This document shows positions 2,288 through 54,730 of a stretch of DNA of 64,000 nt, in pieces. Source of the stretch: Nioella sp. Lineage in GTDB: Bacteria > Pseudomonadota > Alphaproteobacteria > Rhodobacterales > Rhodobacteraceae. The DNA is taken from NCBI RefSeq assembly GCF_965215655.1, contig NZ_OZ244111.1, forward strand, positions 517,963-581,962, read 5' to 3'. How positions within the stretch are numbered: the first letter of the stretch is position 1; every line of letters begins with the position of its first letter. A model generated the notes under the pieces. That model worked only from the letters and a program-made list of their open reading frames with translations. It had not been told where the DNA came from and made no database searches. The position numbers and the translations under genes are program-made.

Positions 2288-2433
2288 CTGCACTGCCTGC
2301 CCGCACCTGTGCCGCTGTTTCGCGGTCTTGATCGGTGTTTTTGTCGCTGTTGGGGTGCTGTGTCTTGCACCCCTGCCTAGGATGAGAGAGTGTCACGGCA
2401 AGGGCTGAAATGCCAGAAAAAGGGAAAGACGGG

Positions 2434-3420
2434 ATGCCAGGTCAGAAGCTGAGTGTTGTCGTAACGCGACGGTTGCCCGAGGCGGTCGAGACGCGGATGT
2501 CGGAACTGTTCGATGTGGAACTGCGCGAGGATGATCGCCCGATGACCCGGCAGGAACTTGTCTCGGCCATGGGCCGGGCCGATGTGCTGGTGCCTTGCGT
2601 GACCGACCAGATCGACGCCGGATTGCTGGGGCAGGCGGGTGATAAGCTCAAGCTCATCGCCAATTATGGCGCGGGCGTCGATCATATCGACGTGCACACC
2701 GCCCGCCAGCGGGGCATTCTCGTGTCCAACACGCCCGGTGTGGTGACAGAGGACACCGCCGATATGACCATGGCGCTGATCCTTGCCGTCACGCGCCGCA
2801 TCCCCGAGGGTCTGGCGGTAATGCAGGCTGGCAAATGGCAGGGCTGGTCGCCCACGGCCTTCATGGGTGGGCGCATCGGCGGCAAGCGGCTCGGCATTCT
2901 GGGCATGGGCCGGATCGGCCAGGCCGTGGCCCGGCGCGCGGCGGTGTTCGGGATGCAGGTGCACTATCACAATCGCCGTCGTCTGCATGAGCACATCGAG
3001 GCGGATCTGGAGGCGACCTATTGGGAAAGCCTCGACCAGATGATCGCGCGGGTCGATATCCTGTCGATCAACTGCCCGCACACGCCCTCGACCTTTCACC
3101 TGATGAACGCGCGGCGGCTGAAGCTGATGAAACCCACGGCGGTGATCGTGAACACCTCCCGCGGGGAAGTCATCGACGAAAACGCCCTGACGCGAATGCT
3201 GCGGTCCGGCGATATCGCCGGGGCGGGTCTCGACGTGTTCGAACATGGCAAGGACGTGAACCCGCGCCTGCGCGAGCTGGAAAACGTGGTGCTGCTGCCG
3301 CATATGGGCTCGGCCACGCTGGAAGGGCGCGAGGAGATGGGCGAAAAGGTCATCATCAATATCAAGACCTTTGACGATGGCCACCGGCCGCCCGATCTGG
3401 TCGTGCCGAGCATGCTGTGA
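2434..3420 (+). CDS. D-isomer-specific 2-hydroxyacid dehydrogenase (glyoxylate/hydroxypyruvate reductase-like)
   Basis: GILGMGRIG Rossmann motif, NTSRGEV, LDVFE, LPHMGSAT; alternative start at 2410. Confidence 0.9.
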   Translation: MPGQKLSVVVTRRLPEAVETRMSELFDVELREDDRPMTRQELVSAMGRADVLVPCVTDQIDAGLLGQAGDKLKLIANYGAGVDHIDVHTARQRGILVSNTPGVVTEDTADMTMALILAVTRRIPEGLAVMQAGKWQGWSPTAFMGGRIGGKRLGILGMGRIGQAVARRAAVFGMQVHYHNRRRLHEHIEADLEATYWESLDQMIARVDILSINCPHTPSTFHLMNARRLKLMKPTAVIVNTSRGEVIDENALTRMLRSGDIAGAGLDVFEHGKDVNPRLRELENVVLLPHMGSATLEGREEMGEKVIINIKTFDDGHRPPDLVVPSML

Positions 3421-3433
3421 CCACGCGCAATCA

Positions 3434-3520
3434 GAAGAAAATTCCAGAATTTTCTTCCTGCCGCAAAATTCTTCCAGAAGAATTTTGGACCGGTTTGAAA
3501 ATCCTTCGGGAAGGATTTCC
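3434..3520. repeat. array of three AT-rich 24-bp palindromes (11-2-11)
   Basis: GAAGAAAATTC-CA-GAATTTTCTTC (3434-3457, perfect); CAAAATTCTTC-CA-GAAGAATTTTG (3464-3487, perfect); GAAAATCCTTC-GG-GAAGGATTTCC (3497-3520, one mismatch). Confidence 0.9.
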
Positions 3521-3537
3521 CGGCGCGCGTTGCGGTC

Positions 3538-4071
3538 ATGGCTAGGTTTGTCGTCCTACCGGTCCTGATTGCCTTCGCCTGCCTTCTGGCGGGTCTCTAC
3601 GGAGTGGTTCACAACCAGATCAGCTATACGGTCGGTCCCGACTATTTCCATGCTTTCAAGTTCCCCCAGTTCAACATCGCCGAGGCACTGCCATTCCGGG
3701 TTGGCGCAGCCATCGTCGGCTGGCGGGCAAGCTGGTGGATGGGGATAGTGATTGGCGTGCCCATCGCCGCCATTTCCCTGGCCATGCCAACAACGCGGCA
3801 GATGGTCCGCACCTTTCTGCGGGCGTCCCTGCTGATCGTTGGGATCACGTTTGCGCTCGGTGTGGCCAGCCTGTTTGTGCCGGTCGACCCCGCACAGTTT
3901 CACCATTTCCGCGTCCCGCCCGGCGTCACGGATGTGCCTGGATTCATTCGAGCTGGGTTGATGCACAACACCAGCTATTGTGCAGGCATGATCGGCCTTG
4001 GCGCCGGGCTTATTTATATGATCGTTGCGGTCATCCGGGCACGGCGATCGGTCGGTAACACAGCCAGATAG
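3538..4071 (+). CDS. uncharacterised integral membrane protein
   Basis: 177 aa ORF, about four hydrophobic segments, motifs HNQISYTVGPDYF, WWMG and MHNTSY. Confidence 0.7.
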   Translation: MARFVVLPVLIAFACLLAGLYGVVHNQISYTVGPDYFHAFKFPQFNIAEALPFRVGAAIVGWRASWWMGIVIGVPIAAISLAMPTTRQMVRTFLRASLLIVGITFALGVASLFVPVDPAQFHHFRVPPGVTDVPGFIRAGLMHNTSYCAGMIGLGAGLIYMIVAVIRARRSVGNTAR

Positions 4072-29167: not shown

Positions 29168-29210
29168 GAGGGTGCAAGGCCCTTCGAAGGGCCTTGGCTG
29201 CGCTCCAATA

Positions 29211-54609: not shown

Positions 54610-54730
54610 GCTGCGATCCGGTTTGGGCGAGCCGTTTGACCCTGAGCGGGGCCAAGGCGGTTCGAACCGCCTTCCAACCCGATTGCGAAATCAGGTCAAA
54701 GCGCCTTCGAAGGCGCTTCCCCGCCCGGTC

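Follow-up and report, generated by a model that had tools for sequence, protein, structure and literature searches.

The palindrome array found behind a dehydrogenase gene of a Nioella genome, within a 64,000-nucleotide stretch of DNA (the window, a term used here for that whole stretch), is a member of a lineage-restricted family of extragenic palindromes, probably a REP/BIME-like hairpin family, that has no RAYT gene. It is in enterobacteria and pseudomonads that REP-type repeats are best known, their spread there being explained by the RAYT transposase. What is described here is a REP/BIME-like family in a marine Rhodobacterales genus without RAYT, built of A+T-rich, perfectly paired stems whose arms are much more conserved than the flanking proteins. 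An earlier note on this DNA had put forward, among its readings, a REP/BIME-like family of dispersed palindromes, and this proposal is borne out by 23 arrays in the present genome and by the presence of the family in all nine genomes of the genus (9/9).

The array behind the dehydrogenase gene

Three adjacent inverted repeats, each consisting of two 11-nt arms around a 2-nt centre (11-2-11), start at window positions 3434, 3464 and 3497. Direct reading of the sequence and a repeat finder both return the two perfect units and the single mismatched one that had been described earlier, and the previously given distances (starts 30 and 33 bp apart, spacers of 6 and 9 nt) are likewise correct. The features of the region are as follows:

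2410..3420, strand +: upstream gene, D-isomer-specific 2-hydroxyacid dehydrogenase (hprA-like; Pfam 2-Hacid_dh_C, 4e-59; from the ORF list)
3415..3428, strand +: left half of a predicted long-range stem enclosing the three hairpins (RNA fold); contains the dehydrogenase stop codon
3434..3457, unstranded: hairpin unit 1, GAAGAAAATTC ca GAATTTTCTTC, a perfect 11-2-11 palindrome
3458..3463, unstranded: spacer 1, ctgccg, G+C-rich and unconserved (orthologues ccgtcg, cggcat, ggtctc)
3464..3487, unstranded: hairpin unit 2, CAAAATTCTTC ca GAAGAATTTTG, perfect; 'X' type, box GAAGAATTTTC
3488..3496, unstranded: spacer 2, gaccggttt, unconserved (orthologues ggctgcctt, cggacccg, ggcaacg)
3497..3520, unstranded: hairpin unit 3, GAAAATCCTTC gg GAAGGATTTCC, with one A/C mismatch at the second stem pair
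3525..3541, strand +: right half of the predicted long-range stem (RNA fold), pairing with 3415-3428; contains the ATG of the membrane ORF
3538..4071, strand +: downstream membrane ORF of 177 aa, outside the repeat element and without a Pfam family

The array occupies the 117-bp gap between the dehydrogenase stop and the ATG of the membrane ORF, the TGA lying 13 nt upstream of unit 1 and the ATG 17 nt downstream of unit 3. Its stems are 64-73% A+T, and the genome, a single contig of 4,139,531 bp, is 63.1% G+C, compared with the ~65% given in the earlier note. The predicted stem 3415-3428/3525-3541, of which a TGACCAT/ATGGTCA equivalent is found in G001, may enclose the array, although such weak folding evidence may also reflect coincidence. 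Note also that the closest relative of the window's dehydrogenase belongs to an uncultured Nioella (89%).

Copies and unit design in the genome

In a genome-wide scan, A+T-rich 11-2-11 palindromes with a TTC-nn-GAA centre form 24 clusters, including an unrelated singleton. With the singleton excluded, 23 arrays with about 60 hairpins are present in the 4.14-Mb genome, most of the arrays being triplets when degenerate units with 3-4-nt loops are included. The number of units per array ranges from one to four, three being the usual count, and an array usually mixes box variants (X, Y, Z, W and other types). Each unit is a 24-bp palindrome made of an 11-nt box, GAAGANTTTTC, and its complement, GAAAANTCTTC, around the 2-nt centre, and both orders (box-then-complement and complement-then-box) are found. 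The commonest arm variants differ solely at the central N of the box, the GAA...TTC frame is invariant across units, and the centre is TG, CA or CG in 29/38 units, being mostly pyrimidine-purine. Spacers between units measure 5-18 nt and are G+C-rich, without any common sequence either in themselves or in the flanks, and start-to-start spacing within arrays is 29-42 bp, except for one 64-bp gap that contains a degenerate unit.

The anchor pattern GAA-N5-TTC-N2-GAA-N5-TTC has 38 matches in the genome, versus 0-3 for other spacer lengths and none for a reversed-pattern control. Since base composition predicts only about two perfect 11-2-11 palindromes of any sequence in the whole genome, these 38 matches, together with the folding z of the 131-nt array region against shuffles (-5.6 as RNA and -5.7 as DNA), place the palindromes far beyond chance. 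The search of the genome and its relatives thus uncovers a multi-copy element with homologues elsewhere, and not a single-copy curiosity. Neither is it a CRISPR, as had already been supposed, given that the units differ from each other, the spacers are 5-18 nt long instead of the roughly 26-72 nt of CRISPR arrays, no array exceeds four units and the loci, 23 in number, are dispersed.

The same genome contains a second and larger hairpin family, called here family B, of 20-22-bp palindromes with the form AAG-N4-TT-SS-AA-N4-CTT. Its units usually occur as two or three abutting copies, often between GCGCGGGG and CCCCGCGC clamps, and they have 72 strict matches versus 1 for the control; they too are found behind genes. 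The two families are alike in being perfect short palindromes that have TTC..GAA at the centre and form arrays behind genes, whereas family B differs in its abutting units, its G+C-richer stems and its species distribution, with counts of 94-113 in G001, G002, G004 and G006, 8 in G005, 1-2 in G003, G007 and G008, and 62 in one other genus.

Pairing within the units

The 38 strict-pattern units were defined irrespective of their inner five positions and therefore provide an unbiased test of pairing. Their inner arms are fully complementary (5/5) in 37 of the 38 units, involving 12 different pentamers, while a null obtained by pairing arms across units is complementary in 13%. Across the 27 distinct sequences all five variable pairs covary, with standard pairs in 100% of the cells. 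Changes on both sides are present in 38 cells versus 10.2 in shuffles (0/500 reach the observed number), and the covariation signal is lost when the partner columns are slid. Wobble pairs account for one cell in 297. RNA stems under selection normally tolerate G-U pairs; their near-lack here is atypical of RNA stems and agrees with DNA-level pairing or with templated copying.

Conservation at orthologous sites

All three units of the dehydrogenase-site array are found in G001, G002, G004, G005, G006 and G007, while G008 retains unit 1 alone and G003 only degenerate remnants. Two of these genomes compare with the present one as follows:

Arm positions differing from this genome: G001, 1/66; G005, 1/66
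Dehydrogenase third codon positions differing: G001, 32/100; G005, 38/100
Loop positions differing: G001, 4/6; G005, 6/6
Spacer positions identical: G001, 19/28; G005, 15/28

Judged by this alignment, the arms at the orthologous site are conserved about 20 times better than third codon positions, that is, synonymous sites, which indicates strong purifying selection. The sole arm difference from G001 and G005 is the mismatch in unit 3 of the present genome, and this mismatch is private: G001, G002, G004, G005 and G006 carry a perfect palindrome with a GAAGGATTTTC arm, and in G007 it is the other arm of unit 3 that has diverged. The arms of unit 1 are unchanged in G004, G001 and G005 and show one change in G006, G002 and G007, its loop varying between ca, cg, tg and cc. 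Gene conversion by other copies is an unlikely source of this conservation, because no other member of the genome's 38 strict-pattern units shares the inner sequence of unit 1 (pentamer GAAAA). In the case of unit 2, G007 has CAAAAGCCTTC tg GAAGGCTTTTG, a form that differs by two compensated base-pair changes. Six further arrays followed in four genomes are mostly in place, their arms kept or compensated and their loops and spacers changing freely. The earlier suggestion that selection acts on symmetry rather than on sequence is consequently right in its first half, self-complementarity being kept by compensatory changes, but not in its second, as the arm sequence itself is also extremely conserved.

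The membrane protein next to the array is 73% identical in G001 and 56% identical in G005. A link between the array and the arrival of the membrane gene, as had been considered possible, does not hold up, since the two are present or absent independently in relatives: G007 has the three-hairpin array without the membrane gene, and in L001, a Nioella relative, the membrane gene is accompanied by only one degenerate hairpin. G003 and G008 lack the membrane gene, the oxidoreductase gene (window 4198 onward) following without it.

Position relative to genes, and gain and loss

Genes outside the window were called with a crude GC3-based heuristic, giving 3,808 genes that cover 90% of the genome. 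By these calls, arrays occupy 11 convergent gaps, 12 tandem gaps (including that of the excluded singleton) and one divergent gap; in the genome as a whole all four gap classes are about equally common. After correction for small ORFs and degenerate end hairpins, a stop codon lies at most 17 nt from an end hairpin in 22/23 arrays. At co-directional gaps the array always begins 0-17 nt from the upstream stop (at C1:495911 with its degenerate end unit included), irrespective of how far away the next start lies (15 to ~1,000 nt). An apparent exception at C1:1544390 is resolved by a 76-aa ORF that ends exactly at the array, and two other arrays reach a stop codon through degenerate end units; the stop codon (TGA or TAG) and the first GAA overlap in several cases, as in caTGAAGAATTTTC. 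The sole true exception is C1:690997, an array that separates two divergent genes and is situated 23 nt upstream of a DUF167-like one. The neighbours of the arrays are housekeeping genes with no relation to one another (ABC transporter, aminotransferases, PhoH, GcrA, PhaR, SufB, Ndk, SoxB, CysS, carboxyltransferase), and one array is placed inside an operon, between soxB and soxD. No transposase was found among the flanking genes examined. We also would like to mention a replichore bias of 16 versus 7 arrays, which is suggestive only.

Relatives provide both filled and empty sites. At C1:1076022 an array with identical arms is present in this genome (G000), G002, G004, G005 and G006 and absent from G001, G003, G007 and G008. 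The empty sites of G001, G003 and G007 have the same two genes 7 nt apart (TGAggccgatATG), the filled genomes carrying ~121 extra nt that include a new ribosome-binding region, and no target duplication was found at this locus when filled and empty sites were compared. At C1:1837254 the number of hairpins is 0 in G007, 1 in G005, 2 in this genome and 3 in G001; in G007 the stop and start overlap as ATGA, and the filled genomes have ATGA on both sides, with a second GGAGG..ATGA copy. This possible copy is the one candidate for a target-site duplication seen between filled and empty sites. Clean empty sites thus exist and hairpin number differs between species, and sequence comparison shows slow gain or loss between species, of entire arrays as well as of individual hairpins.

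Distribution across genomes and databases

The family is found in each of the other eight genomes of the genus, with 29-42 strict units in G001, G002, G004, G005 and G006 and only 3-8 in G003, G007 and G008. The family looks to be decaying in G003, and we take G003, G007 and G008 as decaying genomes. One genome from each of 300 other genera of the same taxonomic family was also scanned; almost all contain 0-2 non-palindromic chance matches, and about five of the 300 carry the repeat family. For the elevated counts in G135 (12) and G301 (6), the listed matches are palindromic units of the same kind. In G117 (10) and G166 (7) the counts of the anchor pattern are elevated as well, and G101 and G315 have one or two palindromic units each among the matches listed.

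The exact 'X' unit is found in 22 metagenome contigs of 58-72% G+C, often beside a 'Y' unit, and twice the 24-bp units abut in such contigs at a 25-nt period. A scan of IMG/VR gave one contig with two hairpins, and BLAST searches of plasmid and phage collections gave no match to the array. Behind the same dehydrogenase at 79 other Rhodobacterales loci there are generally no conserved hairpins, and the few hairpins seen are unrelated or family-B-like. The literature on box sequences, on REP in Rhodobacteraceae and on Nioella yielded nothing relevant.

Known classes and partners

No Rfam match overlaps 3434-3520 even at E <= 10, and a scan for sigma-70 promoters and terminators found nothing at the array. 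That the array is no normal terminator, as stated in the earlier note, agrees with its A+T-rich stems lacking a U-tail, with the negative terminator scan and with the array inside the soxB-soxD operon. The suggested cognate RAYT/TnpA, on the other hand, is missing: Pfam Y1_Tnp (PF01797, RAYT) has 0 matches in this genome, control genomes being positive, and a single match (in G006) among 12 other array-bearing genomes, so that it is absent from 11/12. No GTAG head was found in or beside the units, which start with GAA and end with TTC. Membership in the GTAG-REP/REPIN-RAYT class is ruled out by these two absences.

Several other candidates were rejected. A classical MITE does not match repeats that have no fixed composition, vary in unit order and number, have no IS with matching ends and, apart from the possible GGAGG..ATGA copy, show no target duplication between filled and empty sites. 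Regarding an IS with matching terminal repeats, the isolated 11-nt boxes are chance occurrences or belong to family B, and none flank an ORF. CsrA-type GGA loops were discarded, as loops read against the direction of transcription have no sense-strand GGA bias, and both CcrM (GANTC) sites and uptake sequences were excluded on sequence.

What the arrays may do

Under the REP/BIME-like reading, which we consider probable, each unit would form, within one strand, a stem of 10-11 bp closed by a 4-nt loop and, being a palindrome, would do so equally on either strand. Transcribed into mRNA, the array would form three tandem stem-loops in a 3' UTR or in intercistronic RNA, a structure that could delay decay in the 3'-to-5' direction or shield adjacent transcription units from each other, in the manner of E. 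coli REP/BIME. This RNA-stability function, drawn by analogy, is the least certain part of the reading. Given the near-lack of wobble and the close conservation of sequence, maintenance or spread could also involve a DNA hairpin or cruciform and a putative hairpin-specific protein. Several points speak against parts of this picture: neither a mobilising enzyme nor a target-site duplication came to light, AU-rich stems would be a poor design for blocking an exonuclease, the scarcity of wobble points to pairing at the DNA level or to templated copying rather than to RNA-level pairing, and the array at C1:690997 lies in a divergent gap and not at a 3' end.

Somewhat unlikely, in our estimation, is a reading of the arrays as hairpin elements that need no RAYT, home to stop codons and depend for their maintenance on a dedicated, putative hairpin-specific protein. 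One would expect such a protein in the six array-rich genomes (29-42 strict units) and in a few unrelated genera, and its loss where the arrays decay (G003, G007 and G008). This reading would explain the strict Watson-Crick palindromy, the ~20-fold greater conservation of the arms, duplication-free insertion exactly at TGA/TAG and the patchy distribution. If true, it would mean a new hairpin-enzyme partnership, parallel to REP-RAYT.

We regard it as improbable that the arrays are duplex-DNA docking sites for a dimeric or multimeric protein, whether a nucleoid-associated protein, a regulator or a recombinase, that would read the GAA/TTC triplets and the shape of the A/T tracts. The three sites would then be comparable to those of resolvase res or the 12-2-12 hix, and it is true that the 11-2-11 geometry and the number of sites resemble those of serine-recombinase res/hix. 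The invariant GAA...TTC frame, the mostly pyrimidine-purine centre, the typical grouping in threes, the almost complete absence of wobble pairs and the extreme conservation of the arm sequence across species, beyond what pairing demands, all agree with this idea. However, the inner five positions vary and yet remain complementary within the unit (37/38), a pairing for which a reader of duplex DNA has no need. The half-sites covary and occur in both orders (arm-rc and rc-arm), the 29-42 bp spacing has no helical phasing, and the arrays are found at gene 3' ends and inside operons, not at promoters, beside genes without a common theme. In the case of recombination, 23 scattered sites would endanger the chromosome, and no recombinase adjoins the arrays among 20 flanking genes examined.

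The view that the arrays act as unconventional, strand-symmetric bidirectional terminators, replacing the canonical G+C-rich hairpin and U-tract, appears very doubtful. It draws on the way in which arrays hug stop codons, on at least seven convergent pairs in which the array nearly fills the 70-117-nt gap and leaves no space for another terminator, and on 'Y'-type units, whose short inner stem is preceded by an A5 run and followed by a T5 run. There is, however, no U-tail after the stems and no hit of the terminator scan at the array, and two arrays adjoin a canonical terminator with hairpin and T-run. Moreover, read-through is needed at the array between soxB and soxD and at those whose flanking genes overlap in relatives (ATGA) or stand 7 nt apart there. 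To judge from these contexts, the arrays are probably not efficient terminators of any kind.

We hold it to be very unlikely as well that the arrays are selfish or mutational by-products without a host function, seeded by a putative enzyme or by fold-back or template-switch errors, tolerated behind genes and kept palindromic by quasipalindrome correction. Their patchiness across genera, the remnants in G003, G007 and G008, the gain and loss of single hairpins and of whole arrays, and the presence in the same genomes of a second hairpin family with a different lineage distribution would all be expected of such by-products, and perfect Watson-Crick palindromes without wobble fit templated copying. 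Against this, arms are ~20-fold more conserved than third codon positions, including those of unit 1 with its unique inner sequence, arrays persist at the same site across ~35% synonymous divergence, and correction by template switching should by itself leave the substitution rate per pair unlowered.

The unusually A+T-rich, perfectly paired stems and the conservation of the arms point either to a genuine host role at the ends of transcripts or to a putative hairpin-specific enzyme, and the six array-rich genomes, the three decaying ones and the clean empty sites provide a comparative handle for finding the partner. There are also practical consequences, since arrays break short-read assemblies (contig ends in G005) and annotators could mistake them for terminators or operators.

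Comparison with known systems

Considering the REP/BIME-like reading in the light of other repeats, we begin with the inverted pairs of uptake sequences (Neisseria DUS, Haemophilus USS) and bidirectional terminators, which share with the Nioella family an inverted 11-nt box placed directly behind genes and strand symmetry. They differ from it in that here the box centre is variable and covaries within the pair, there is no U-tract, and the boxes form arrays of three, also inside operons. A reading as uptake signals makes no sense because the box centre varies and covaries within each pair.

REPIN-RAYT systems (Bertels and Rainey; Nunvar et al.; Ton-Hoang et al. 2012) are found in Pseudomonas and other bacteria. 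What defines them is their partner, a Y1 HUH transposase with the repeats on either side. Likenesses with the Nioella arrays are a lineage-specific hairpin population, kept in some genomes and decaying in others, and insertion without target-site duplication. The Y1 HUH transposase is, however, missing here, and the units are not inverted doublets that form one long hairpin.

The REP/BIME of Escherichia coli and Salmonella are palindromic units arranged in mosaic clusters. They differ from the Nioella units, which are 24-bp, near-perfect and A+T-rich, in being imperfect, G+C-rich and ~35-40 nt long, and the Nioella family is further set apart by having no GTAG head and no RAYT gene, by numbering only ~60 units per genome and by being confined to one genus and a few others. 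The arrays nevertheless resemble REP/BIME in design and placement, and probably in the way they work. As in those systems, short palindromes are present in many dispersed copies, extragenic and located at gene 3' ends and between cistrons; differing units with variable linkers are combined into small mosaic arrays; folding is possible on either strand; and the number of units varies among relatives.

Surroundings of the studied array

In the predicted fold, the three hairpins at 3434-3520 of the window, which belong to family A (dispersed A+T-rich 24-bp palindromes), are enclosed by a 14-bp long-range stem that joins 3415-3428 with 3525-3541, the predicted partners being the stop-codon region of the dehydrogenase gene and the membrane ORF's start codon. 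The pair TGACCAT/ATGGTCA is found at the equivalent place in G001, another genome of the genus. If formed, this stem could couple or mask the start of translation, or its prediction could be a coincidence. The ORF concerned is listed here.

3538-4071, membrane ORF of 177 aa, about four transmembrane segments, no Pfam family

It constitutes an indel separating the array from the oxidoreductase gene, present in six of the nine genus genomes and in one Nioella relative, and missing from the other three of the nine compared (G003, G007 and G008). The ORF evolves fast, with 56-84% identity within the genus.

Placement of family A and an unlikely partner

GC skew places the origin of the chromosome (G000:C1) close to coordinate 0, with the terminus at about 1.87 Mb. 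The family A arrays are mildly skewed: the right replichore, which makes up 45% of the chromosome, has 16 of them and the left has 7. The sole array that is not 3' of a gene (G000:C1:690997-691080, outside the window) occupies a divergent gap, where a DUF167-like ORF begins 23 nt downstream. The repeats apparently break short-read assemblies: several contigs of a relative, G005 (C105, C186 and C204), end at or beside family A arrays.

G006:C58:16377-16667, Y1_Tnp (IS200/RAYT-type) match, open frame of 199 aa

This Y1_Tnp match is the single one in the genus, and it is unlikely to be the partner of family A, because only one array-bearing genome has it.

Arrays and look-alikes elsewhere

L144:12141-12200, two-hairpin array on IMG/VR contig IMGVR_UViG_3300035698_035353, classed as viral
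G209:C1:69519, G062:C51:78575 and G014:C40:90592, examples of GAAC-N4-GTTCATGAAC-N4-GTTC-like sites

The first array reads GAAAAATCTTC ta GAAGATTTTTC, followed by GGAATTTTC ta GAAAATTCC; its contig could represent a prophage; alternatively, it could be a fragment of a related bacterium that was wrongly classed as viral. The GAAC...GTTC-like sites, repeatedly matched by the family A anchor pattern in several unrelated genera, appear to be SOS (LexA) boxes of Alphaproteobacteria arranged in tandem, not members of family A. The palindrome scan also returned a parS-like palindrome, TGTTTCACGTGAAACA, at G000:C1:3946776-3946799, outside the window.

A second hairpin family

The same genome carries a second dispersed hairpin family, B, with two loci in the window and about 60 more elsewhere.

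29176-29195 (G000:C1:547138), family B locus
54654-54718 (G000:C1:572616), family B locus

Its unit is a perfect palindrome of 20-22 bp of the form AAG-N4-TT-SS-AA-N4-CTT (for example AAGGCGCTTCGAAGCGCCTT), and the strict pattern gave 72 matches versus 1 for the control. Units abut, usually two or three per locus, and are frequently flanked by a clamp, GCGCGGGG...CCCCGCGC, an arrangement for which a Y-shaped fold is predicted. In its species distribution, family B is unlike family A.
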